Positions 4,288-64,000 of a stretch of DNA of 64,000 bases are shown one piece after another (within the stretch, counting starts at the first letter, position 1; each line of letters opens with the position of its first letter). The notes beneath the pieces are model-generated. The model searched no databases, was not told where the DNA came from, and saw nothing but the letters and a program-made list of their open reading frames with translations. The stretch lies in IMG/VR virus record IMGVR_UViG_2934853166_000001. One strand, given 5' to 3'. The position numbers and the translations under genes are program-made. This stretch comes from an uncultured virus (IMG/VR IMGVR_UViG_2934853166_000001) (taxonomy: Duplodnaviria; Heunggongvirae; Uroviricota; Caudoviricetes).

Positions 4288-4710
4288 TCAGTCCCAAGTG
4301 GCGTTGTAGTCGTCGGCGGCGTTCCGATAGCCGGCCTTCTCCGCGTCGTCGGCGGTGGCGGCGTCCACGACACGGGTCCAGCGGTGGGACAGCATCGATT
4401 CGCGGCGGCCCTGCACCTCGTGCTCGCCGGGCAGGACGGCGTCCACGGTGTGGGTGGCGCACGGCCCGTTGCTGGCGAGACCCACAACCGTCCACCGGTC
4501 GGCGTGGGGTGGCGTGCTGGTGTCGGCGGTGATCAGGTGGGGGCCGATGGTGCGGAACGCGTCACGCGTCCACTCGATGGCCTCGTCGGCGGTGCGGGCG
4601 GTGACGTAGGCGGTGTGCACGTTGTGGCCGTAGGCGGTGTGGCGTCCGGCGACAGCACCGATGTGGTCGGGGCTGGTGCCGGTGATGGTGATGACAGTCC
4701 AGGTGGCCAT
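4288..4710 (-). CDS. Hypothetical phage protein
   Basis: RBS, operon context. Confidence 0.6.
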   Translation of the reverse strand: MATWTVITITGTSPDHIGAVAGRHTAYGHNVHTAYVTARTADEAIEWTRDAFRTIGPHLITADTSTPPHADRWTVVGLASNGPCATHTVDAVLPGEHEVQGRRESMLSHRWTRVVDAATADDAEKAGYRNAADDYNATWD

Positions 4711-4745
4711 GGGTTGGGCTCCGTTCGGTCAGTTGGCGGTGTCGG

Positions 4746-5063
4746 TCAGCTCGGCGGCCAGTTGGGGCGGGTGCTGCGCTCCCGGAAACTCTGGGCCCGA
4801 TCGAGGAAGTACCTGCCGAGCGTTTCCAGGTGCTCAGGGTCGGCCACGTCGACCCCGCCGACGTTGATCACGCCTACGAAGTCGAGGACGGTCAGGCTGC
4901 GCTTGTTGGTTCCGACGACCAGGGCGTGGCCGTAGCGGGGGCCGACGTAGACGCCAGGGTCGAGGCGGTCTTCCTCGTGGGTGTGGGCACCCTCGCCGAT
5001 GACATCGGCGATGTGGTCGGTGAGGGTGCCGTCGGCGGCGATCAGTTCCGGCTGGTGGTCCAC
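4746..5063 (-). CDS. Hypothetical phage protein
   Basis: GTG start after GGAGG, operon context. Confidence 0.6.
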   Translation of the reverse strand: MDHQPELIAADGTLTDHIADVIGEGAHTHEEDRLDPGVYVGPRYGHALVVGTNKRSLTVLDFVGVINVGGVDVADPEHLETLGRYFLDRAQSFRERSTRPNWPPS

Positions 5064-5065
5064 AG

Positions 5066-5329
5066 TCAGTCCTCCGGGTTGCTGTCGGCCCACTCCAGCC
5101 GGACCTCGCACCTGAGGTCGACGGGCAGCCAGTCCTCCCGGTAGGTGACCCAGCCGGGGCCGCTTTGGTATGGGGTGCGGGCGTCTCGGAGCCGTCGGAT
5201 TCGGAACTTCTGCGCTTCGGCTGCGGTCAGATGTTGCGCAGGCTGCACGAATCGTTCGGTGTAGCCGTCGTCGTGGGTGCGGGTTGTGGTGAGCCAGTAC
5301 GTGGGTTGCTCGGCGGGTTCGGTCGTCAC
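5066..5329 (-). CDS. Hypothetical phage protein
   Basis: Tight operon spacing. Confidence 0.55.
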   Translation of the reverse strand: MTTEPAEQPTYWLTTTRTHDDGYTERFVQPAQHLTAAEAQKFRIRRLRDARTPYQSGPGWVTYREDWLPVDLRCEVRLEWADSNPED

Positions 5330-5332
5330 CGG

Positions 5333-5722
5333 TCAGTCCTCCACGGGAAAGCCGTACGCCTGCGCCTCGGCCAGCAGGCCGGACACCTCGACGTACACGG
5401 TGTGGTCATCACGGGCGATGGCGGCGGCGATGCGGTGCCAGCCGTCGTTGACGGTGACTCCGTTGAACACCTCCACCTCGATTGGGTCGCTGCCGTCGTT
5501 GGCCCAGTTGCGGGTGAGCCAGGCGACGCGGGCGGTGTGGGTTCGGGTGGGGTGGCTGCTGTCGGCCCAGTCGCGGCGTCCGGGGTTCGAGGCGCGGCAG
5601 GCGTTGACGGCCTGCCGGTCGAGCGGACGGCAGCCTCGCCACGGCGGATTGCGGTACGGGTCGAAGGGGATCAGGTCGAGGAAGGCGTCCAGGTCGACGG
5701 GGACGACAAGGCGGGCTGCCAT
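5333..5722 (-). CDS. ParB/Srx-like N-terminal domain protein
   Basis: PIEV...VNDGWHRIAAA motif (DGxHR). Confidence 0.6.
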   Translation of the reverse strand: MAARLVVPVDLDAFLDLIPFDPYRNPPWRGCRPLDRQAVNACRASNPGRRDWADSSHPTRTHTARVAWLTRNWANDGSDPIEVEVFNGVTVNDGWHRIAAAIARDDHTVYVEVSGLLAEAQAYGFPVED

Positions 5723-5949
5723 CAGTCCTCCATCGGGTCGCAGGTGAGGCAGTCGACGGCGGCCACGGTCGGGTGGTTGATGCAGGTCAGCAGCACCTCA
5801 GCCCACGCTGGATGCCGGGCGGCGGTGAGACTTCCATCGGGATCGACGCTGGGGTCCACGTGCTGGATGAGGTGGCCGTCGATGAATACGGCGAGCAGGG
5901 CTCCGGCGGCACCGGAGGCGTCCTGGTGGGCGAAAGGCTGGCGGGTCAT
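5722..5949 (-). CDS. Hypothetical protein
   Basis: Overlapping stop/start, CxxC near C-terminus. Confidence 0.5.
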   Translation of the reverse strand: MTRQPFAHQDASGAAGALLAVFIDGHLIQHVDPSVDPDGSLTAARHPAWAEVLLTCINHPTVAAVDCLTCDPMED

Positions 5950-6137
5950 CGGCTCGCGGCCTTCGGCGGGAAGCGGAGGCCGAGGCTGCGCACCTCATGC
6001 CGCAGTGCTAGGTCCCGAAGCGCTTCCTCGATGCGGGGCCATCCCTCCGAATCAGAGTCGGACGGGCGGTCCAAGTACGCCTCGATGAGTAGTGCGGCGA
6101 TCTTGTGCGCCTCTCGCCGGGCCTCACGCTGGTTCAC
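5946..6137 (-). CDS. Hypothetical protein
   Basis: 4-bp overlaps with both neighbours. Confidence 0.5.
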   Translation of the reverse strand: MNQREARREAHKIAALLIEAYLDRPSDSDSEGWPRIEEALRDLALRHEVRSLGLRFPPKAASR

Positions 6138-6400
6138 GATTGGCCCTCCAAGTTCTGCTGGCGGGCAATCGCCTCGTCCCGGGTGGTAATGGTGAGGCTG
6201 CTCTGCCGTCGCCCCATGCTCACGCCGTACAAGCCGGCGCGGACGCGGAAGGTGGGCCGTTCGGCGAGGTGCGCGGCGAACGAGCGGGCACCCCGGCAGG
6301 TGCGGTCGGTGAAGAGGATCCGCCCGGTGCGGGTTTCGAAAACGAACCGGCGGTGGCCGGCGGCGTCAGCGGCGGCGATCTGGTCGTAGACGTGTCGCAT
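6134..6400 (-). CDS. Hypothetical protein, probably leaderless first gene of the leftward operon
   Basis: ATG 6 nt after a GATACT -10 box. Confidence 0.6.
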   Translation of the reverse strand: MRHVYDQIAAADAAGHRRFVFETRTGRILFTDRTCRGARSFAAHLAERPTFRVRAGLYGVSMGRRQSSLTITTRDEAIARQQNLEGQS

Positions 6401-6406
6401 GGGAAC

Positions 6407-6435
6407 AGTATCCGCCTCGACTGTTTGCGGGTCAA
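6407..6435 (-). promoter_or_regulatory. Sigma70/HrdB-type promoter
   Basis: TTGACC-N17-GATACT on minus strand. Confidence 0.6.
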
Positions 6436-6489
6436 GCGGGAACATGTTTACGATCGACACTCTAATGAACATGACGGGAGTTGAGACAG

Positions 6490-6744
6490 ATGGACACACA
6501 AACCCGCTACCCTCGGCGCGTGCCAAGACCCCGCTGGACCCCACCCAACGACGACGTAGCCGCCCGCATCGCCGAGGTGGTCAAGCGGCACAAGCAGTGG
6601 CACCAAGCCGAGCAGGAGTACAAGGCCCTACTCGCCGAGATCGCCGACCCCGCCAAGGACGACGTGCCGATTGCCCACCTAGCCGAGCGGCTCGGCGTGG
6701 AGCGGAAGACCGTGTACCGGCACCTCGGAAGGTCGATGAAGTGA
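6490..6744 (+). CDS. Small HTH protein
   Basis: PIAHLAERLGVERKTVYRHL. Confidence 0.75.
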   Translation: MDTQTRYPRRVPRPRWTPPNDDVAARIAEVVKRHKQWHQAEQEYKALLAEIADPAKDDVPIAHLAERLGVERKTVYRHLGRSMK

Positions 6745-7340
6745 TGAGCAGGGACGTTCAGACGTCGTTGTATCGCCTGCTTCGCGCTGACGGGCAGCTG
6801 CTCTACGTTGGGATCAGCCTGAATCTGGGCGTGAGGTGGAAAACCCACAGCGGCAAGAAGCCTGACTGGAGCCTCGTGGCGCGCGCCGAGGTCGAGCACT
6901 ATCCGAGCAGAGACGCAGCTTTGGACGCCGAGAGAACCGCGATTCAGACGGAGCGCCCGATCTGGAATGTCGTTCACAACCGTGGCATCCGGATGTTTGG
7001 CCCGGGGGTGCGACCCGCTCCTACCTCGACAACCGATCCGAATCCCGGAACGAGCAGCGACGCCGCGATCCTCGCCGAGGTGACTGCCCTTGCAGAGAAA
7101 TACCGACACACCAAAGCGCGCCACGAAAAGGCCGTTCGCGTACTCAGAAGGGCAGAGGCCGAGCGTGTCGCGGCGGCGGCAGTCGTTGAGGCGCTGCGGA
7201 AGCCGCTGCAACAGGAGATTGTTGCGGCGGCGAAGGCGGGGCGCTCGCCGAAGGTGATATGTGAACTGACCGGATACGGTCCGGAGCGGGTGCGTCAGCT
7301 TCTCCGCGCGGCAGGTGTGGAGCCGTTCGAGCGGCCTTGA
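6744..7340 (+). CDS. GIY-YIG nuclease fused to coiled coil/HTH
   Basis: LYR...LLYVGIS...RW..H...AE..AI..ERP.WN; C-terminal GRSPKVICELTGYGPERVRQLL. Confidence 0.8.
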   Translation: MSRDVQTSLYRLLRADGQLLYVGISLNLGVRWKTHSGKKPDWSLVARAEVEHYPSRDAALDAERTAIQTERPIWNVVHNRGIRMFGPGVRPAPTSTTDPNPGTSSDAAILAEVTALAEKYRHTKARHEKAVRVLRRAEAERVAAAAVVEALRKPLQQEIVAAAKAGRSPKVICELTGYGPERVRQLLRAAGVEPFERP

Positions 7341-47286: not shown

Positions 47287-48192
47287 TCAGGACTCGCTGA
47301 CACGGCCGGTGAACGTGAACGTCGCCGGCAGGACGAGCTGACCGGCCGGACCCTGCGGACCCGCGTCACCCTTCGGACCCTGCGGACCAGCCGGGCCAGC
47401 GGGACCTGGCTTACCCGCCGCGCCGTACTTGAGGACGATGCACTTGTGGAGCTGCATGTTGCCCCACGCATCGAACACATCACCCGACGTCGCCGACGAC
47501 CCGGCAGCCTTCCGCATCGCCAGCACCGCGCCCGACGTTTGCTTGCCGTAGGTACCGTCCGACGACCCGGACGGCAGGAACCCTAGGTGCTCCAGGGCGA
47601 CCTGGAGGGCTTTGACGTGCTCGCCCTGGTCCCCGAGCTTGCATGCAGCGAACATGGTGTATGCCTCCCCGGCGAGCAGTCCGATGGTCATCAGGTAGCG
47701 GCGGAACAGCGGGGTCTGGTCCCGGCCCGCCTTGGTCGAGTCGCGGAAGAAGCTGAAGTGGGTGTGCCAGAGGTGGGAGTTGTCGCCGGTGCTGCGCTTG
47801 CCGAGCCGGTCCCACCGCTTGACCGTCTTGCCGTCGGGGGAGTAGATGATCTCCCTGATGTCGGCGGTGTCCGCCGCCCCCCGCTGGCACTCACCCACAC
47901 ACCACACCGAGAACGACCGCAGGTCATGGGTGCGGCCACCCGACTGCACCGAGAACGTGCCCACATCCAGACCGGAAGCGAACTCACTCAGCCCCGCCTT
48001 GTCCCGAGGTGACTCGGTGGCCGCATACCCGGTCGCTGCCTGCTCCGGCAGACCCAGGTGGTACGAGTTGCCCTGCTGGACGTGCGCGGTGTCGCCCACC
48101 ACGCCAACCTCCGCCGACTCAAGCCCGTGCGGGCCGAGATGCGTGATCAGCAGGGAGCGGACCTGCATCAGGTTGGATGGTGCGCGGGTCAC
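47287..48192 (-). CDS. Endolysin: Zn-peptidase-like domain + PG-binding domain + collagen-like tail
   Basis: SYH...LD...SHLWHTHFSF; GDQGEHVKALQ..L...G.....DG.YG..T; (Gly-X-Y)9. Confidence 0.75.
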   Translation of the reverse strand: MTRAPSNLMQVRSLLITHLGPHGLESAEVGVVGDTAHVQQGNSYHLGLPEQAATGYAATESPRDKAGLSEFASGLDVGTFSVQSGGRTHDLRSFSVWCVGECQRGAADTADIREIIYSPDGKTVKRWDRLGKRSTGDNSHLWHTHFSFFRDSTKAGRDQTPLFRRYLMTIGLLAGEAYTMFAACKLGDQGEHVKALQVALEHLGFLPSGSSDGTYGKQTSGAVLAMRKAAGSSATSGDVFDAWGNMQLHKCIVLKYGAAGKPGPAGPAGPQGPKGDAGPQGPAGQLVLPATFTFTGRVSES

Positions 48193-52867: not shown

Positions 52868-55800
52868 TCAGCCCTTACGTCCGACGCGAGCGCGAGCGTC
52901 CATCTGCCGCAGCAGCGACGACATCTCCGACAGCGACGGCGGACCAGACTGCGAGTTGACCGTCAGGTTGTTGGTGACCTGCGTCGACACGCCCTGCCCT
53001 TGACCGCCGCGCACATACCGGCCGCCGTACCAGCCGGCACCGATCGACAGCAGATCCTCGCCCCTGCGCCGGGACCCGAGACGCGGTAGGAAAAGCTCGC
53101 CGCCCGTGCCCCTCTCCGCGAAGCCGTACAGGGTCTTCGCCGAGTCGAACAGGCCGCCCTCCGACAGGCTGAGCAGCCCCGACGGCGACCCCATGTACAC
53201 GCCGCCGATTGCGTTCGGGGTCAACACGATCTTCCCGTACTGCTTGAGCAGCGAGTCGATCTGCGACTTCGCCATACCCGACCCGCTGAGGATCTTTCGG
53301 AGTTGTTCCACGTACGAGTCGTAGACCCCGGTGGCCTTCTTCTTGTCGCCGGTCTGCTCCAACACGGCCTGCGCCGCGTCCTGCGCATCCTTGAGGAACC
53401 GGAACAGAGCGGTCAGGTTCTCCCTACCCGTTTCGTCCTTCACATCGAAGATCGGCTTGTTCAGGCTGAACAGGTCCGTGATCGAGGCAAGCGACCCCTC
53501 GGCGGAGATGGCGGCCTGCGCGGCGGCGATGTTCTTCTCCGACCCCACCGGACCCGGCGTGTCATAGGTGGGCCGCTGCGCCAACTTCTTCATCAGCGAA
53601 TCGATCGTCGCCGCCGACACCTTCTGCTGCTTGAGGGTCGACTTCAACTTGGCGATGTGGGCGTCGTACTCCTTGTTCGCGGCCTTCACGCTGCCCGTCT
53701 CGCGGAACTTGGCTTGCGCCGCCTCTTCGGCGGCCTTCACCGACGAGATGACCGCGCTGTAGTTCTCCCGGCCCTTCTTCGTCGACAGGGAGAAGCTGCG
53801 GCCGTTCTCTTTCAGCGACTCGTTGAGCCGTTGGATGGCGTCCCGGGCCTGGATGTACGCCTCCACCGACTCCAGGGCGCTACCCCGATCCGTGGACGTG
53901 GCAGACGCCGACGCGCCGTAAGCGACCAGCCCCGACGCGGCGGCGATCATGCTGCCCCCGGCGATGATGCCCCCGGAGGCCATCGGCACCACCCGCGCGT
54001 TCGACCACGACGCGGCCTCCGACAGGATCGACAAGTTCCGGTTCCGGTCGCCCTTGCGGGGGATGTACGCTTCGCCCCCCGTCTCGGGTTCGGCAAACTT
54101 GACCAGCGGCGGGTTACTGGCCGGGTAGATGCCGGCCTGCATCATGCCGCCAGAAGCCATCGCCACCGGACGGTCAATGCCACCCCACCGGCGGAGCTGA
54201 GTGCCGCCGGGCACCTTCAGGTTGCCGCTGCTCGTCCACCGCACCTGCCCGGTGATGGTGAAACTGCGGTCCCGGAACGACTGCAAGACGGCCTTCGCGG
54301 CACGCATGTCCGCCATAGCCTGCGCAGTCTTCGCCCCGATCACCACCACCTTGCCGTTCGGCAACTGGCGGATCTGATACAGCACGCCCCCAACCTGGCT
54401 GGCGGCTGTCGTCGCACCCGGCGCAGTGACCGGCGTGGTGACCGCAGGCGGCATCATCCCGTACCGCTCGATCAGCGCATCGATCTGCTCATCGGTGAGC
54501 TTCGCACCATGCAGGGTTTTCCGCAGCGCCTCAATGTACTTGTCGTAAACCCCGGCGGCCTGCTCCACAGAACCGGTTTCCTCGAACCGTTTCTGCGCCG
54601 CTTCGGCCGCCGCCTGGATCATGTCCAGGGTGAGCTGCTTGTTCTCCCGCCCCTTTTCGTTGGCGATATCGAAATCGGTGCCCTGCTTGTTGAGGGCGCG
54701 CCCGTTTTCTTTCAGAGCAGCAGATAGCCGATCGACGCTTTCTTCCGCCTTGATCTCAGCCTCAGCGGATGAAATTGCAGCACCGTTCAGCTCGTTAAAT
54801 ACATCGATCAGGTCCCGACCTGAGGTGACTGCCCCCTGCAAGCCGCCGGTGAGGGTCCGCGCTCGGGTCTCCAAAGCAGCCAGCGAACCGGCACCACCAT
54901 GGGCGGCCCCATTGAGGCGTTCCATCTGGTCGACGGTCTGCGGCATGATCTTCGCAAGCTCACCCGCATCCAACCCTGACGCCGATAGCACCCGGTTCCA
55001 GGCGGCGTTGACACCCGCCGTGTTGTTGGTGGTCTTCGCGTACTGGGCGATAGCCGCGTCCAGAGACTGAATGCGCTCGCGAGAGCCGGTGAACGACTCC
55101 CCGTAGAACAGCTCGTTCAGCGACTTGGTGGGCGGGATCAGCGACTCAATCGACCGGCCAAGGTTAGGGAACCATTTGTCCCCGGCGGTGGCAGCCGACA
55201 GGCCGAGCCCTTCCAGGTTGTCGCCGAACACCCGGGCCAGTTCGCCCGTCGTCTTGCCGGTCTCGGCGAGGTTCTCGACGGACTTGGTGAGCCGGTCCAC
55301 GTCGGCGATCGGGTCTACGAACTGGTCGAACACCACCCCAGCCAGTTGCAGCGCGACCAGCGCGGTGACGGCCTTGCCGGTGGCGGAGGCCAGCCCGGTC
55401 ATGCCCGTGGCGGCTTTCTGCCCGGCCGGGCCCATCGCCGCCATCTTCGCCGCCGCACCCTGCGCCGCGACACCCATCGCGGCGATACCAGTCGTAGTCT
55501 TCTGCGCCACCACACCCAGTGCGATGGCGGCGACCACCACCGACTGGATCGGGTCCGGCAGGCCCTGGAATAGGTCGAACACCACGCGCAGCGCGGCCGA
55601 GCCGGTGGCGAGGATGTCGAACATGGTGGCCAAGCCGTCGCGGGTTCCGGGGTCGGCGAGGGCGTCCCGGGCGATCGACCCGAGCGGCCCCAACACCTGT
55701 GCCATGCCCTCATACGCGGCGGTCAGGGTGTCGACGATGCCGGCGATGTCTTCCGCGCCCCGACCGGACGCCATGTACGCGTCGAGGGCCCGCGCGGTGC

Positions 55801-57097
55801 CGACGATCGCGCTGTTCTGGTTGTTGACGGCGCTGATGACGTTGCCGATGATCGACGCCAGATCCCCGGTGATCGACAGCAGTGCGCTCGCCGACTCGGC
55901 ACCCGACGCGAAAAACTCGGCCAGATCGCCGGTGGAGCGGGCGCGGGCGATACCGGCGGTCATCGAGTCGATGGCACCCGCCAGCCGGTCACCGATCACC
56001 CGCACCAGCGGATCGGCGGCGACAGCAACCGACGACAGGGCCCGCGCCACCGGCTGGATCCGCACGATCAGTTGGTCGAAGATGCGGTCGGCGGTGGCGG
56101 TGACCTGCTGGAATCCGCCGAGGATCATCGGGTCGGTGGCGGCGTCGGTGATCGCCGTCATCGCGAGCGACCAGTCGTGGGCGAGGATCGCCGCCTGCCT
56201 ACCCACCGTAGGCAGAGTGTCGGTAGCAAGCCGCTCCAAGTTGCCTGCCGCGCTGGCGTACGCGGCGTCTTGGAGGGACTGCTGCAACCCGAGCAGTTGC
56301 GGCTTGAGCCGCCCCACCTCCTGCACCAGCGCCTTCGCCGACGGGCTGAGCTGCTTGAACGGGTCGTCGACCTCGAACAGGTCGCCGAGCGCATCGCTGA
56401 GGCCGATGGAGGCGACCTTGACGGTGCCCATTGCCGCAGCAGCACCACCGAGAATCCCCGGCAGGGTGCCAGCGGCAGCACCAGCGGCCACAGCGGCGGG
56501 GGCAATGTACTGGATTGCGCCACCCGCAGCGGCAGCCGCCGACGCAGTGACCGCCAGCACCATGCCTGTGCGCCGACCCAGCTCGCTCAGGGCATTGCCC
56601 GCCTCATCGGCGTCCCGGGCCACCTTCTCGACGCCACCGCCGACCGACACGGTGCCAAGCCGGCCGGCAGCCGCCTCGTGGGTGCGGGCCGCAGCAGCGA
56701 ACTTGTCCGACGACGCGGCCCACCGCTCGGCAGCCGCCTCGTACCGCTTCGACGCCCGGTCATGGCGGCCCGCCGACTGCTGCACCGTCTTCGACGCGGC
56801 ACCCAGCTTGTCGGCTGCCTCGCCGGCCTGAGCTGCCTGCTGCTCCCATACGGCCGACGACGATGCGAACCGGTTTGCTGACCCCTCGTAAATTCTGGCT
56901 GCGGCGTCGAACTTCTTCGCCGAGGCGGTGACCCGCCGGGCCGCAGCGTCGAGGCCCTTACCCACCCCGGATGCTTCCCGCTCCAGCCGGGCAAGCTGGT
57001 CGGCGAGACGATTCGTCGCCAGGGCCGCCTGTGCGGCACCGGACGTGTAGTCGTGGACCTGCATGCGCAGACGCACGGACACGGTGCGGTCAGCCAT
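52868..57097 (-). CDS. Tape measure protein
   Basis: 1409 aa Ala-rich helical protein; MADRTVSVRL start; FAE..TGGE motifs; canonical position. Confidence 0.92.
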   Translation of the reverse strand: MADRTVSVRLRMQVHDYTSGAAQAALATNRLADQLARLEREASGVGKGLDAAARRVTASAKKFDAAARIYEGSANRFASSSAVWEQQAAQAGEAADKLGAASKTVQQSAGRHDRASKRYEAAAERWAASSDKFAAAARTHEAAAGRLGTVSVGGGVEKVARDADEAGNALSELGRRTGMVLAVTASAAAAAGGAIQYIAPAAVAAGAAAGTLPGILGGAAAAMGTVKVASIGLSDALGDLFEVDDPFKQLSPSAKALVQEVGRLKPQLLGLQQSLQDAAYASAAGNLERLATDTLPTVGRQAAILAHDWSLAMTAITDAATDPMILGGFQQVTATADRIFDQLIVRIQPVARALSSVAVAADPLVRVIGDRLAGAIDSMTAGIARARSTGDLAEFFASGAESASALLSITGDLASIIGNVISAVNNQNSAIVGTARALDAYMASGRGAEDIAGIVDTLTAAYEGMAQVLGPLGSIARDALADPGTRDGLATMFDILATGSAALRVVFDLFQGLPDPIQSVVVAAIALGVVAQKTTTGIAAMGVAAQGAAAKMAAMGPAGQKAATGMTGLASATGKAVTALVALQLAGVVFDQFVDPIADVDRLTKSVENLAETGKTTGELARVFGDNLEGLGLSAATAGDKWFPNLGRSIESLIPPTKSLNELFYGESFTGSRERIQSLDAAIAQYAKTTNNTAGVNAAWNRVLSASGLDAGELAKIMPQTVDQMERLNGAAHGGAGSLAALETRARTLTGGLQGAVTSGRDLIDVFNELNGAAISSAEAEIKAEESVDRLSAALKENGRALNKQGTDFDIANEKGRENKQLTLDMIQAAAEAAQKRFEETGSVEQAAGVYDKYIEALRKTLHGAKLTDEQIDALIERYGMMPPAVTTPVTAPGATTAASQVGGVLYQIRQLPNGKVVVIGAKTAQAMADMRAAKAVLQSFRDRSFTITGQVRWTSSGNLKVPGGTQLRRWGGIDRPVAMASGGMMQAGIYPASNPPLVKFAEPETGGEAYIPRKGDRNRNLSILSEAASWSNARVVPMASGGIIAGGSMIAAASGLVAYGASASATSTDRGSALESVEAYIQARDAIQRLNESLKENGRSFSLSTKKGRENYSAVISSVKAAEEAAQAKFRETGSVKAANKEYDAHIAKLKSTLKQQKVSAATIDSLMKKLAQRPTYDTPGPVGSEKNIAAAQAAISAEGSLASITDLFSLNKPIFDVKDETGRENLTALFRFLKDAQDAAQAVLEQTGDKKKATGVYDSYVEQLRKILSGSGMAKSQIDSLLKQYGKIVLTPNAIGGVYMGSPSGLLSLSEGGLFDSAKTLYGFAERGTGGELFLPRLGSRRRGEDLLSIGAGWYGGRYVRGGQGQGVSTQVTNNLTVNSQSGPPSLSEMSSLLRQMDARARVGRKG

Positions 57098-58167: not shown

Positions 58168-58674
58168 TTACGGGCCGGCGACGACCGCGACGTCCCGCTG
58201 CACGGAGCCGATGACGAAAGGCTTCTGCGTGATCTTGTGCACCGAGTTGCGGGCCGGCGTGTTCTTCCGCTGGATGCCCATCTCCACCGGGTACACGTCC
58301 ACCAGGTCACCGACGGCGATCGCGTCCTCGAAGTCCACCGCCCAGCGGAGCACGATGTTGCCCTGCGTGCCCGGCGCGAGGGCGATGCGCGCCTCGTCGT
58401 CGTCGGGGCTGGCCGGGTTGAACACGTAGGTGAGTTCCATCGTGTCGGTGAAGTCGCCGCGCGCCTCGAAGATCTGCTTGCTGCACAGACGCGGGTCGTC
58501 GATCGTGTTCTCCGACGTCTCCGTGGTGAGGCCGTCGCCCGTCAGGTAGCAGGACAGGTCGAGGACCGTGCCCGCGTTCAGCTCCGTCACCTTCGGCGCG
58601 GCAGTGTTGGCGATGGCCGGCACCCACAGCGCCGTCATCGTCCCATTGGTGTTGACTGCGATGGGCTGACTCAC
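58168..58674 (-). CDS. Major tail (tube) protein
   Basis: WVP.IA..AAP...EL.AG...DLSCYLT.DG...D.RLC. Confidence 0.88.
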   Translation of the reverse strand: MSQPIAVNTNGTMTALWVPAIANTAAPKVTELNAGTVLDLSCYLTGDGLTTETSENTIDDPRLCSKQIFEARGDFTDTMELTYVFNPASPDDDEARIALAPGTQGNIVLRWAVDFEDAIAVGDLVDVYPVEMGIQRKNTPARNSVHKITQKPFVIGSVQRDVAVVAGP

Positions 58675-60287: not shown

Positions 60288-60929
60288 TCACCACCGCCCG
60301 TAGCGGTAGGCGGCGTTCGGGTCGAAGTCGATGACGTCGAGGCCGAATGCGTCGTCCGCATCCCGATCGGCCTGCTCCCGCAACGTCCGTGCCGATGCCC
60401 GCAGTTCGGCGGCCACTGCCGCGCCGTTGGTGGTGAGATCCTGCGTGGAAAGCACCTTGGAAATCAGCACCTCGGACCGGGCGATGATCTCCAACGCTGC
60501 CGCCGCAGCCCGCTTCACCCCACCCTCTCGGGTCAGTAGCGCATCAAGCTGCGCGTCCTCAAACAGGGGCTCCGCCTCGTTCACGTCGGTGATGAGGAGC
60601 CGGATCATGCCGATGTCGTCGGTCGGGTCCAGGGTGATCGGCGGTAGCCCCATCAGCGTGCGGGCCACCACGAACCGGCCCTGCACCGCGTCCTGCGCCG
60701 TGCCGTCCGCTGACAGCGCGAACGTGTGTGTGCCGGGCGCGTCGGCGACGTGTGCGGCCCGGTAGATGCCGGATCCGGCGTTCGCGACCGTCATGGAGGC
60801 GGTGCTGCCATCAGGGCGGGTCACCTCACCGGTGACGGTCGCGTCGTCCACCGGGTCGCCGGCCACATCCCGCAGCAGCCACTCGGCGACGAACTGCTGG
60901 CCCTGCCAGTAGATGCGCGGGCTGGTCAC
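60288..60929 (-). CDS. Head-to-tail adaptor with extra N-terminal Ig-like domain
   Basis: C-terminal IG.IRLLI.D.....F.D.Q...L...AAA.ALE.IA.SE; N-terminal beta-sandwich-like ~90 aa. Confidence 0.72.
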   Translation of the reverse strand: MTSPRIYWQGQQFVAEWLLRDVAGDPVDDATVTGEVTRPDGSTASMTVANAGSGIYRAAHVADAPGTHTFALSADGTAQDAVQGRFVVARTLMGLPPITLDPTDDIGMIRLLITDVNEAEPLFEDAQLDALLTREGGVKRAAAAALEIIARSEVLISKVLSTQDLTTNGAAVAAELRASARTLREQADRDADDAFGLDVIDFDPNAAYRYGRW

Positions 60930-62260
60930 AGCAGTGTCACCTCCGACCGTGGGGGAGTGCGGATGGTGCTGCCCGCCGGGATTCGCAGTTCACCGCGAGC
61001 GGCCGGTGCCAGCACTGATCCGGCGACTGCCCACCCGGTTTCCACCTCGCCGGCCGCAACGGATGCCGTTGACCAGCCGGTGGTGAGCGTCGCGTTCACG
61101 GTGCCTGCGACGGCCCAACTGGTGGCGACGGTGCCTGCCGTGGCAGCGTCGACAGCCCAGCCCGTGGAGACGCTGCCGAAGGATGTCTGATAGACCACCC
61201 AGCCGGTGGACGTGCTGCCGCCGACTGTGGCCGCTACCGCCCAAGTGGTGCCGACCGTGCCGGCGGCGGTGAGCGCCGTCGACCACACCGTGGAGACAGT
61301 CTCCGACGTGACCGCTGCCGTCGCCCACCCGGTAGCCGCACTGCCGGACGCCTGCCCGGCGACACCCCACCCGGAGGTGATCGACCCAGCAGCAACCGCA
61401 GCCACCGACCAACCGGTGCTGCCGCTTCCGGCCACGGGAGACGCCACAGACCAGCCAGTCGCGGCAGACCCGGTGACCGCCGCAGCGACCGCCCAACCCG
61501 TCGCAGCGGATCCGGCGACCGGTGAGGCGACAGACCACGACGTGCCCACACTCCCGGACACCGGTGCCGCCACCGACCATGCCGTGGAGGTCGACCCTGA
61601 CACCTGAGTGGTCGACGCCGACGCGGCCATCTCCACCAGCAGGCCAATCATTGACCCGCTGACATCGGAGGTGACCGTTTCGCCGCCGTAGCTGCCGGAC
61701 GATCCGACCAGCAGATAGCCGGCGGCGGCGCGCACGTTGGCGTTGGTGGTGGCGCGGCTCGTTGAATGGTCGACGGTCTCCGTGTACGAGCCGTCAAGGT
61801 TGATGTTGGTGGGGATCGTGCCTGACGCGACGCGGCTGTGCGCATCGACCAGCAGCGCCGACCCGGACGCCACGCCGGTGAGGGCGGGGAGCGTGACCGA
61901 CGTGCCGGACGCTGCTGCCGTGGCGGCCTGCGCGACGCTGTCAGCGCCCCGCACCACCAGCAGCTCCCAGCCGCCTGTCACGGACCCCGAGTTGGTGATG
62001 GTTGGTGCGGTGTCCCCGCCCTGGAGGATCCGATACCAGGCGTAGATGCGGGACGCGGACCCGTCGGCGTAGGGCCACGTCACCCCGGGTAGCAGCGTCC
62101 ATCCGGCGGGCGTGGACATGGTGAGGGACCCGCCGGACACGTGCCCCACGAGCAGGCCAATGTCGCCGGCAGCCCATCCCGCCGGGAAGGATGTGGCGAA
62201 GCTGGTCGCAGTCGCGGAGCCGGGGTTGCCGGAGGCGACACCGACGTAGGAGACCGCCAC
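60926..62260 (-). CDS. Virion fibre-like protein with 14 x 14-aa Trp repeats
   Basis: N-terminal P.G..AGD.....P.GWT domain; repeat xxVxGSxxTGWxVA. Confidence 0.75.
   Translation of the reverse strand: MAVSYVGVASGNPGSATATSFATSFPAGWAAGDIGLLVGHVSGGSLTMSTPAGWTLLPGVTWPYADGSASRIYAWYRILQGGDTAPTITNSGSVTGGWELLVVRGADSVAQAATAAASGTSVTLPALTGVASGSALLVDAHSRVASGTIPTNINLDGSYTETVDHSTSRATTNANVRAAAGYLLVGSSGSYGGETVTSDVSGSMIGLLVEMAASASTTQVSGSTSTAWSVAAPVSGSVGTSWSVASPVAGSAATGWAVAAAVTGSAATGWSVASPVAGSGSTGWSVAAVAAGSITSGWGVAGQASGSAATGWATAAVTSETVSTVWSTALTAAGTVGTTWAVAATVGGSTSTGWVVYQTSFGSVSTGWAVDAATAGTVATSWAVAGTVNATLTTGWSTASVAAGEVETGWAVAGSVLAPAARGELRIPAGSTIRTPPRSEVTLL
61022..61609 (-). repeat. 42-bp (14-aa) coding tandem repeat x14
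   Basis: Trp every 14 residues, counted by hand. Confidence 0.9.
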
Positions 62261-62276: not shown

Positions 62277-63203
62277 TCAACGCATCAGGTCGACGAACGC
62301 GGCCCGCTCGCGGTCCCTCACGTACGTCTGCCCTGACGGGTAGGCCAGGGTGGCGTGCAGATCGCAGTTGCCCCGGTAGAACCAGGCGACGTATGGCACG
62401 TCCGGCAGCGCCCGCAGGAAGGCCATGTTGTCCCGCATCGCCTGCGCGCAGATCGCGCCGTCGAGGTCGTAGGTGGTCCCCGACTTGAGGGCCGGCTTGC
62501 GTTGAATGCCCCACTCGGGAATCACCAACGGCCGACCAACCCGCCGGGCCGTGGCGAGCGCGAAGCCATTCCGCTCGGCCGGGGTGCGATAACGCTCATA
62601 TCCGGTGTCGTAGATGTCGAACCCGACCGCGTCCACCCCGGGATAGGTGGCGACCTGCCCGAAGTCGGTCCACCACGAGGCGCTGCGGGTCGCCGCGTAC
62701 TCGGTGAACACGGGCACCAACCACACCTCACGCCGACGCGGGTGGTCGGCCAGGGCCTCCAGCAGTTCCTTCCACTCCTGCCGATGCTCGGCGGGGGTAG
62801 GGTCCCCGGAGTCTTGCTGCTCTGGTTCGTGGTCGAGGGTCACTAGGTCGATCACGCCGCGTCGGGCCGCCGGACGCGCCGACAGCCAGTCGCGGATCAG
62901 CGCGGGCGAGGTGGTGCGAGACCAGTCCTTGAACGAGTAGTGCAGCACCGTTTGGGCTGGCACTTCGGCGAGCATTCCCGATGACCACGGGGCGATGCCT
63001 TTGCCCGGCGCGCTGTAGAGCCGCATCAGTCGGGGCTGCGGGTAGCGGGCCGCCATCCGCTGGATATCCGTCACCGTGCTGTCCGGTGGGCACCAGCCGA
63101 GCAGCGTTGACCGTGCCTCTACGGTGATCGTCGTCGCCGTGACGGTGGTGTTGCCGGCTGCGTCGCGGACCCGCCCGGTCAGGACGACCGTGCGGGTGGC
63201 CAT
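62277..63203 (-). CDS. Clan GH-A glycoside hydrolase (GH26-like) with N-terminal beta-hairpin
   Basis: HEPE (acid/base), VGFDIYD, PLVIPEWG (nucleophile). Confidence 0.75.
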   Translation of the reverse strand: MATRTVVLTGRVRDAAGNTTVTATTITVEARSTLLGWCPPDSTVTDIQRMAARYPQPRLMRLYSAPGKGIAPWSSGMLAEVPAQTVLHYSFKDWSRTTSPALIRDWLSARPAARRGVIDLVTLDHEPEQQDSGDPTPAEHRQEWKELLEALADHPRRREVWLVPVFTEYAATRSASWWTDFGQVATYPGVDAVGFDIYDTGYERYRTPAERNGFALATARRVGRPLVIPEWGIQRKPALKSGTTYDLDGAICAQAMRDNMAFLRALPDVPYVAWFYRGNCDLHATLAYPSGQTYVRDRERAAFVDLMR

Positions 63204-63475
63204 CAGGCGACCGTGACCGTAAACCGGCCGGGCGCGGACGGGTCCTCGACGATCGTCACGCCCGGGTCGTTGGCGGTCAGCTCGTAGGTGAGCGGATCAC
63301 CGACGGTGAGGATCGTGTTGGCGGTCGCGGTCGCACCGTTCGCGTCGGTGACCGTGCCGGACAGGGTGATGGTGCGGGCGTCCGGGTCGAACGCGTCGAT
63401 CCACACCTGCACTGCCTGGCCAGGCTGCACAGTGTCCGGGGAGGCAGAGATGGAACGGATGATCGGGGCGGCCAT
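63203..63475 (-). CDS. Small Ig-like protein (permuted)
   Basis: AP.I.SISASP..V.PG......A.DPD...GDPLTY; RBS AGGA. Confidence 0.7.
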   Translation of the reverse strand: MAAPIIRSISASPDTVQPGQAVQVWIDAFDPDARTITLSGTVTDANGATATANTILTVGDPLTYELTANDPGVTIVEDPSAPGRFTVTVA

Positions 63476-63498: not shown

Positions 63499-64000
63499 TC
63501 AGAGGGTGTCGCCGAGCCACGCGAACGTGACACCATCGGCGGCGAGCGGGGCGGTGTTGGCTGCGGTCCGGCGAGCCCAGAACGCGCGCACCTGGCCGGG
63601 GCCAATGTCACCGAGCGACAGGGCGGCACCGGAGGTGGTCGGCGTGGAGAACGTCACCCCGGCCGGCGCGGTCGTGTCGTTGGCGATCTGCACCGCCTGC
63701 GCCGACGACGAACCGACAGCCGACGCCGCAGTGGGGTCCACACCGATAGCCACCGACGCCCCACCAGAAACCTCAGCGGACATGTACACCTTCGCCGACT
63801 GGAGCGTCAGGCTGCCGTGGGTGTTGTGGACGAACACGCACGCATAGTCGACCTGACTCGCGGCGTTCTCGCTGCCGGTGATGTTCGGGAACAACCCGTT
63901 GGTGCTGCCGTCGGCGATCACCGTCGTCGACACGTACTTGCCGAGAGACGACCCCACCACCCCGGCCGTGGTGTTACCAGCCGACCCGGACGTGGTGGAC
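63499..64000 (-). CDS. Virion structural protein, N-terminus outside the window
   Basis: SLG.Y.S...LF..I.G.EN....DY.C.FV.N...LGDI.PG...AFW.RR. Confidence 0.65.
   Translation of the reverse strand, partial: STTSGSAGNTTAGVVGSSLGKYVSTTVIADGSTNGLFPNITGSENAASQVDYACVFVHNTHGSLTLQSAKVYMSAEVSGGASVAIGVDPTAASAVGSSSAQAVQIANDTTAPAGVTFSTPTTSGAALSLGDIGPGQVRAFWARRTAANTAPLAADGVTFAWLGDTL

Follow-up and report, generated by a model that had tools for sequence, protein, structure and literature searches.

Why should a small immunoglobulin-like (Ig-like) protein stop before the last two strands of its fold, and why should the enzyme encoded directly behind it begin with a hairpin of just that kind? This question is raised by a gene pair in an uncultured member of Caudoviricetes (IMG/VR record IMGVR_UViG_2934853166_000001), from which a stretch of 64,000 nucleotides, here called the window, was analysed. 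The source region is a Micromonospora-type siphovirus prophage of high GC content (about 69%), and the genes discussed here are all encoded on its minus strand. We call the small protein (P0001) the socket and the N-terminal hairpin of the enzyme, a glycosidase (P0002), the tag. An original prediction, made without database searches, had proposed that this pair builds an enzyme-capped, pilus-like chain, and a check of the open reading frames (ORFs) confirmed its coordinates and frames. The pair divides one Ig domain between two genes, an anatomy that is real and unusual, and we rate the chance that the socket and the glycosidase bind each other through the tag as about even. The features of the pair are as follows, with structural models from AlphaFold2 (AF2) and their confidence as the predicted local distance difference test (pLDDT).

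63203 to 63475, minus strand: socket gene, encoding P0001 (90 aa), with ATG at 63475 and TGA at 63203-63205 (ORF and translation)
63380 to 63475, minus strand: P0001 residues 1-32, with strands A and B and a terminal DPD motif, matching the canonical PKD/Big_9-type N-terminal half
63302 to 63379, minus strand: P0001 residues 33-58, internal beta-hairpin (a copy of F-G) between DPD and GDPLTY, extra to the canonical unit
63206 to 63301, minus strand: P0001 residues 59-90, GDPLTY and strands C, C' and E (canonical profile positions 37-66 on residues 59-88, 22.6 bits)
63201 to 63205, minus strand: ATGA overlap of socket stop and glycosidase start, sharing base 63203 (read from the sequence)
62277 to 63203, minus strand: glycosidase gene, encoding P0002 (308 aa), with ATG at 63201-63203
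63117 to 63203, minus strand: P0002 residues 1-29, the tag, modelled by AF2 as strands 4-13 and 19-28 (block pLDDT 73, 90 and 79)
62280 to 63116, minus strand: P0002 residues 30-308, (beta/alpha)8 barrel of glycoside hydrolase (GH) clan GH-A, closest to GH26
62826 to 62828, minus strand: codon of Glu126 (HEPEQ), putative acid/base after barrel strand 4, from invariance and the model
62514 to 62516, minus strand: codon of Glu230 (PEWGI), putative nucleophile in barrel strand 7, from invariance and the model

As judged from its sequence, P0001 is a PKD-like Ig domain that ends after strand E, its C-terminus being the point at which the canonical domain would go on into strand F. We represented the canonical domain by a hidden Markov model (HMM) built from seven repeat units of 99 aa, taken from two database proteins. 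This HMM matched P0001 in two pieces (profile positions 6-52 on residues 3-48, and 37-66 on residues 59-88), indicating that residues 33-58, modelled by AF2 as strands 34-43 and 49-58, are extra. A profile of 60 family sequences matched solved PKD domains through its positions 33-60 only, and always at the last two strands of these domains (KIAA0319L, 6nz0; collagenase ColH, 9lqj, 4jrw, 2y72, 4aqo and 4jgu; 2kpn), with weak E-values of 9e-4 to 1.6. The collinear order A-B-C-C'-E-F-G, which defines PKD and Big_9 domains within one polypeptide, is not found in P0001. It should be noted that HMMER can also align the socket segment DPD-ARTITLSGTV collinearly with canonical DPDGD-LSYSW, so that the first strand of the insert resembles the canonical C strand as well. 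No Pfam family exceeded its cut-off for P0001 (the best were Ig_VWA7 with 14.1 bits against a cut-off of 27, and Big_9 with 13.7 against 23.6), there were no useful PHROG or NCBIfam matches, and a Foldseek comparison of the P0001 model with the PDB gave no match at E<=0.001. The nearest ESM Atlas clusters are of PKD, K319L-like and Big_9 type (scores 0.83-0.86, to be read as leads only).

The piece that the socket lacks is present at the start of the glycosidase. The internal hairpin of P0001 aligned with enzyme residues 2-29 in a profile-profile comparison (hhalign probability 91.8%, E 7.3e-7) and in BLASTP (E 0.009). The relationship is visible in the DNA as well, where the best direct repeat of the region (42 nt, 71% identity, 63160-63201 versus 63342-63383) spans the first strands of both hairpins. 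In the natural fusion protein P0063 (367 aa), which unites socket, tag and a homologous GH in a single chain, the stretch from strand C through C' and E to the enzyme-side hairpin (residues 60-116) is collinear with canonical profile positions 38-95. Thus, one canonical unit corresponds to socket residues 1-32, socket residues 59-90 and enzyme residues 1-29, and since this unit is spread over both proteins, the gene boundary falls inside a domain. The three structural claims with which the original prediction began are therefore borne out: a copy of the last two strands interrupts the DPD/GDPLTY motif, these strands are missing from the C-terminus of P0001, and the enzyme starts with a matching hairpin.

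If the two halves belong together, they are expected to occur together, and this is what was found. P0001 has 19 relatives at 49-97% identity, and its start methionine is kept in 19 of the 20 aligned relatives. The wider socket family numbers 154 proteins (E<=1e-3) in a library of representatives at 50% identity and has no Pfam or PHROG name; 86 of all fetched family members are stand-alone proteins of 80-125 aa. Among the genomes sampled, the socket turned up in 29 of 401 from the same order and in 3 of 401 from the class. In the fetched loci, which come from at least 29 genomes, a tag hairpin follows every full-length socket (31/31), so that the co-occurrence is obligate in this sample. For 25 of these the tag lies in a gene that overlaps the socket stop, on a GH26-like enzyme in five cases and in 20 on an enzyme of 346 aa without significant global similarity to the GH26-like one; in the other six (L032-L037) socket, tag and GH form one chain, the GH being homologous to P0002 (hhalign 99.7%). 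The one-base ATGA overlap of the window recurs in 10 fetched loci, of which 8 are distinct. The count of 31 leaves out L024 (weak partial match), L026 (deletion variant), L057 (match ending at profile position 50), L027-L029 (large multi-domain proteins with canonical repeats) and L031 (a fusion with a partial profile match); the pairing is also present in the window itself and in L004, L012 and L016. At L031, socket and tag are fused to a further, unclassified domain, and it is on this one locus that the generality of the pairing beyond Micromonosporales rests. In P0058 a socket stands at the C-terminus of a different domain of 265 aa. Overall, as far as sequence comparison goes, members of the socket family are partnered with at least three types of enzyme. 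When viral contigs were scanned with single proteins for distant family members, no relatives emerged.

Several variants of the arrangement were observed. At L006/L013 (9848-10819, plus strand), P0012 joins socket residues 1-32 via a single short strand to the glycosidase barrel; this deletion variant lacks strands C-E and the greater part of the two hairpins, as though the hairpin repeats had recombined, and still lies 5' of the fibre gene in a viral contig of 46.8 kb. More distant phage relatives have an unrelated 88-aa protein, without a match to the socket profile, encoded ahead of the glycosidase (L017/L019, 9729-9995; L018, 7522-7788, plus strand). There the glycosidase keeps a hairpin-like N-terminus, with an ATGA-type overlap in L018, and the 88-aa protein may be a second kind of adaptor. 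Copies in ordinary chromosomal surroundings (L058, 7718-8758, minus strand; L059, 8015-9118, plus strand) have no evident signal peptide and are flanked by genes for an aldo/keto reductase, a luciferase-like oxidoreductase, a PETase-like hydrolase, GH88 and MEDS/STAS regulators.

What does the tag carry in the window? The AF2 model of P0002 is confident (pLDDT 94.0; predicted template modelling score, pTM, 0.88), and Foldseek comparison upheld the earlier assignment to clan GH-A. The model has the (beta/alpha)8 barrel of this clan, with two glutamates at the expected strand 4 and strand 7 sites. No variation occurs among 24 sequences at H125, E126, P127, E128 and Q129, which follow model strand 119-123, and E230 (in EWG), likewise invariant in the 24, lies inside model strand 226-233; by analogy with the general clan GH-A pattern, E126 and E230 would be the catalytic residues. 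The closest structural neighbours belong to GH26 (the corresponding figure for GH5 and GH39 is about 17), and one database source labels a homologue of P0002 as a glycoside hydrolase family 26 protein. By sequence, P0002 does not fall into GH26, the identity to GH26 structures being 11-13%; no Pfam family exceeded its cut-off (Glyco_hydro_cc reached 18.1 bits, cut-off 21), and the GH family profile found no chain among PDB sequences at E<=0.1, only rows at chance level. All structural matches begin at model residues 28-34, so that residues 1-28 are an appendage outside the barrel. Both hairpins read as amphipathic, which gives the tag a hydrophobic side that has to be buried, and neither N-terminus, of P0001 or of P0002, shows an evident signal peptide.

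By sequence, the two homologous hairpins fall into distinct orthologous classes. The residue before the turn Asp is Arg in 23 of 27 unique tags versus Thr or Ser in 20 of 21 unique internal hairpins. Tags from different groups are 0.32-0.51 identical to each other, versus 0.20-0.45 between tags and internal hairpins of the same group; this comparison samples three lineages only. Such class-specific residues are not expected of two plugs for the same slot. We also asked whether the internal hairpin and the tag evolve in concert within a genome, and rejected this for want of an excess of identity (permutation p 0.27). Each of the four prophage loci with an intact pair has exactly one socket and two hairpins, and neither the window nor the seven related loci scanned contain a further tag or socket. 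Mean-field covariation analysis of 179 family members (effective number of sequences 148) recovered the A-B, B-E, C-C', C'-E and h1-h2 ladders, where h1 and h2 are the hairpin strands; the antiparallel A-B ladder was the strongest. Couplings comparable in strength to the known ladders link the internal hairpin with strands B and C, suggesting that this hairpin is part of the sandwich core and not a loose appendage.

Since the enzyme hairpin is the piece that the socket lacks, and the two are always found together or fused, complementation through the hairpin is a reasonable inference. We propose that the two genes would form one functional unit derived from a split PKD-like Ig domain. The socket would contribute strands A, B, C, C' and E together with the internal F-G copy, which would be integral to its own sandwich, and the glycosidase would contribute the canonical F-G hairpin as its tag, followed directly by the barrel of a GH26-like retaining glycanase. 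After coupled translation, the tag would pack onto the socket by completing or augmenting a beta-sheet, giving a small, defined heterocomplex, most simply of 1:1 stoichiometry. The complex would most likely sit on the neck or fibre apparatus of the virion, and the enzyme would there cleave a polysaccharide of the host surface as the phage adsorbs. Taken as a whole, that is, as a heterocomplex of socket and tag holding a virion glycanase in the neck-fibre module, this proposal seems to us evenly poised between right and wrong. Of the hairpin donation proposed originally, the filling of the socket gap by the enzyme hairpin is plausible (31/31 together or fused), whereas a self-polymerising chain is not supported.

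The putative virion placement is read from gene position. The neighbouring genes are as follows.

63499 to 63999, minus strand, continuing past the window edge: upstream neighbour P0004, phrog_13135 (PHROG E 2.3e-24)
60926 to 62260, minus strand: downstream neighbour P0003 (444 aa), probable fibre, with an N-terminal domain and 14 repeats of 14 residues
59489 to 59995, minus strand: tail completion protein (PHROG scan)
58168 to 58674, minus strand: major tail protein (PHROG scan)
52868 to 57097, minus strand: tape measure protein, 1409 aa (PHROG scan)

The PHROG scan placed Dit and minor tail proteins among the tail-side genes of the window as well. The gene order past the window edge is shown by L001, an 88% identical relative from Micromonospora carbonacea: terminase, Mu-like portal, protease, scaffold, major capsid, head-tail connector, phrog_13135 (178 aa in L001), socket, GH, the 444-aa protein, then neck and tail genes. 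The whole capsid-to-tail block, including the socket and GH genes, is on one strand, and this order puts the pair in a late structural operon, between head-completion and neck genes. Because the pair stands between the head-tail connector genes and the gene of a Trp-repeat fibre, display on the virion neck or fibre is the most likely fate of the complex. P0003 is probably a fibre: its N-terminal domain of about 215 aa is followed by 14 consecutive repeats with one Trp each (motif roughly GSxxTGWxVAxxV; Trp at 228, 242 and so on to 410, with a spacing of exactly 14), and its L001 orthologue matches phrog_6079, "tail protein" (E 9.8e-11). Tandem Repeats Finder detected no repeat in this gene at the DNA level. 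A P0003 homologue lies directly 3' of the glycosidase in L001, L006, L007, L012 and L016, and in L019 it comes after one intervening 129-aa gene.

Other genes of the region deserve mention. The phrog_13135 protein, whose gene separates the head-tail connector gene from that of the socket, has no Pfam, NCBIfam or functional annotation. After the fibre gene, with its start overlapping the fibre gene stop, comes a gene for a 213-aa protein (60288-60929, minus strand), which combines an Ig-like stretch at residues 18-80 (weak Pfam matches to YtkA/Invasin_D3) with a phrog_18316 domain. A 301-aa protein (47287-48192, minus strand) has weak PHROG matches to endolysins at residues 176-234, and its residues 257-285 weakly match a short motif of many tail-fibre and collagen-like minor tail proteins. 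Outside the window, L001 encodes (4625-7111, plus strand) an 828-aa head-maturation protease/Mu-I-like protein with an internal 2H-phosphoesterase domain (Pfam 2_5_RNA_ligase2, E 9.2e-8; Acb1 anti-CBASS, E 1.6e-4; PHROG "RNA ligase"), which may be a cyclic-nucleotide phosphodiesterase packaged in the virion.

Several observations weigh against the proposed heterocomplex. The AF2 monomer of P0001 already forms an Ig-like sandwich with its own hairpin (pLDDT 80.2, pTM 0.54; five models from 54 to 80), at odds with the originally proposed open subunit that needs the hairpin of a neighbour; this model leaves the canonical C strand (59-72) as coil, is only moderately reliable, and its details are not to be trusted. 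Covariation contains an antiparallel h2-C ladder in the register of a hairpin acting in cis (sum 120, z 1.65), in which case the socket's own hairpin, and not the tag, would adjoin strand C. The two hairpins of the same genome are not unusually alike (13.2 of 25 positions identical within a genome versus 12.9 of 25 between genomes, 9 unique pairs), a result that is neutral as to a fibre or a complex. Pairs and fusions of socket, tag and enzyme also stand between ordinary chromosomal genes (sub-family 2, the fusions and L002), so that the module is not specific to virions. Finally, the search for the gene pair in other actinophages, suggested at the outset, succeeded in part: it recurs in prophage loci, but no cultured phage of the INPHARED collection carries the module (P0002, P0083 and P0105 had no match there, and P0001 two weak matches to canonical domains).

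These observations can be read in other ways. P0001 could be a closed, permuted PKD-like domain that does not dock, for example a glycan-binding or decoration protein that shares an operon with the enzyme without being bound through the hairpin, the tag being a vestige or linker from an ancestral Ig-GH fusion. The cis h2-C ladder speaks for such a reading, as do GH homologues with other N-termini (the 88-aa upstream gene at L017-L019, a domain of 230 aa in P0015 and P0020, and no tag at all in L009 and L010); the N-terminal domain of the fused GH P0015 showed no BLASTP similarity to the fibre protein P0003. We consider it unlikely, as the VRDxxGxT signature peculiar to the tag is preserved in three enzyme contexts, even in fusions, where a linker could decay, as it accompanies every one of the 31 sockets, as the gene boundary falls exactly inside the canonical domain, and as an amphipathic hairpin has a hydrophobic face to bury. 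A bolder reading is the chain first predicted, in which the internal hairpin of each socket enters the open F-G slot of the next, head to tail, and the tag fills the first slot, giving an enzyme-tipped fibre. As judged from strand order, such a geometry would work, since the hairpin projects from the B-C loop and its insertion in trans in the F-G orientation would stack subunits end to end. Each system has one hairpin more than slots, and the antiparallel h1-C ladder, whose register is that of canonical F-C pairing (sum 106, z 1.92, rank 20 of 6084), is what would be expected of h1 at the F position, an in-sheet pairing impossible in cis with short linkers. However, this borderline signal fits cross-sheet packing equally well, and the h2-C ladder is similarly borderline, so that covariation does not settle the placement of the hairpin. 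The different class-specific residues that tags and internal hairpins keep across subfamilies, the single-chain fusions (with two hairpins but a single slot in cis) and the copies on chromosomes, which favour a compact unit, and the lack of an acceptor or extra tag on other proteins of the window or the seven related loci all argue against a polymer, and we regard the pilus-like chain as highly improbable. A short chain of sockets is conceivable despite this evidence, although we give it little credence; the same low expectation applies to a variant in which the tag enters the socket and the socket's spare hairpin enters the next socket or a virion acceptor in antiparallel, canonical register, which would make the family a reusable assembly system and give short, enzyme-tipped neck chains. 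If chains formed by hairpin exchange were true, they would represent a strand-exchange fibre in a virus and in the Gram-positive cytoplasm, with no chaperone or usher.

Whether the complex belongs to the virion is a separate question. The enzyme could instead be soluble or directed to the cell wall, expressed late or in the lysogen, and serve lysis or glycan remodelling, or the pair could be a moron cassette within the structural operon. Near-identical cassettes (L002-L005, 74-75% identity to the window GH) in non-phage neighbourhoods and the location of sub-family 2 and the fusions between housekeeping genes are in keeping with a non-virion role, as is the site of the L001 pair between phrog_13135 and the Trp-repeat fibre gene. 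Against it, at six prophage loci the GH and fibre genes are neighbours within the capsid-to-tail block, read from one strand and with small gaps or overlaps. Moreover, given that no signal peptide is evident at either N-terminus, a role outside the cytoplasm is hard to picture without a virion as carrier, and we therefore consider a non-virion enzyme rather doubtful.

The proposed heterocomplex can be compared with several known systems. Chaperone-usher pili (Fim, Pap, Caf1) assemble by donor-strand complementation and exchange of an incomplete Ig-like fold. As in these pili, an Ig-like fold is incomplete in its own polypeptide and would be completed by strands from another; the sequence anatomy of the pair has this property. 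Unlike in the pili, a two-strand hairpin would be supplied instead of a single G strand, the donor is an enzyme, the acceptor has its own copy of the hairpin, and both proteins are phage products of the cytoplasm. Among the annotated neighbours there is neither a chaperone nor an usher, although no search aimed at them was made. With PKD domains (ColH and KIAA0319L; 9lqj, 4jrw and 6nz0) and Big_9-type repeats, the pair shares strands A-B with DPD, a GDPLTY-type C strand and the TxTVxDxxG hairpin F-G; it differs in the order A-B-[F'-G']-C-C'-E, in having the canonical F-G on the next protein, and in scoring below the Pfam threshold. P0002 differs from CtLic26A and other GH26 enzymes (2cip, 2v3g, 2ddx and 7xjr) by its 11-13% identity and the extra N-terminal hairpin. 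Proteins with a GH5 domain in the phages POR1 (Pseudomonas) and phiEaP8 (Erwinia), found in BFVD with template modelling scores of 0.40-0.54, are likewise phage TIM-barrel glycosidases, presumably acting on host surface glycans. They are domains of large tail-spike or fibre proteins, whereas P0002 is a small separate enzyme that would be joined through a split Ig domain, and its gene is in the neck region and not the baseplate region. Modular attachment is known from cohesin-dockerin docking and from engineered split Ig-like tag/catcher pairs. Here too a short tag is present on varied enzymes and the putative receptor is a small beta-sandwich, but there is no sequence relation, and no covalent bond is expected in the putative complex. 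Among the listings and abstract openings returned by a literature search, nothing described a system of this kind, nothing linked strand complementation with phage Ig-like proteins, and nothing concerned Micromonospora prophage glycosidases.

To our knowledge, enzymatic appendages have hardly been described in the neck-fibre region of actinophages, and the reading preferred here, if true, would place a glycanase there. If the tag completes or extends the socket sheet, the pair would be a natural Ig domain split over two genes, by which interchangeable enzymes are attached to a small adaptor. The cargo would then follow a simple rule, an N-terminal VRDxxGxT hairpin encoded after a socket gene of roughly 90 aa, and a large unannotated protein family would gain a name. 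The same pair would also offer a compact, non-covalent docking module for protein engineering.

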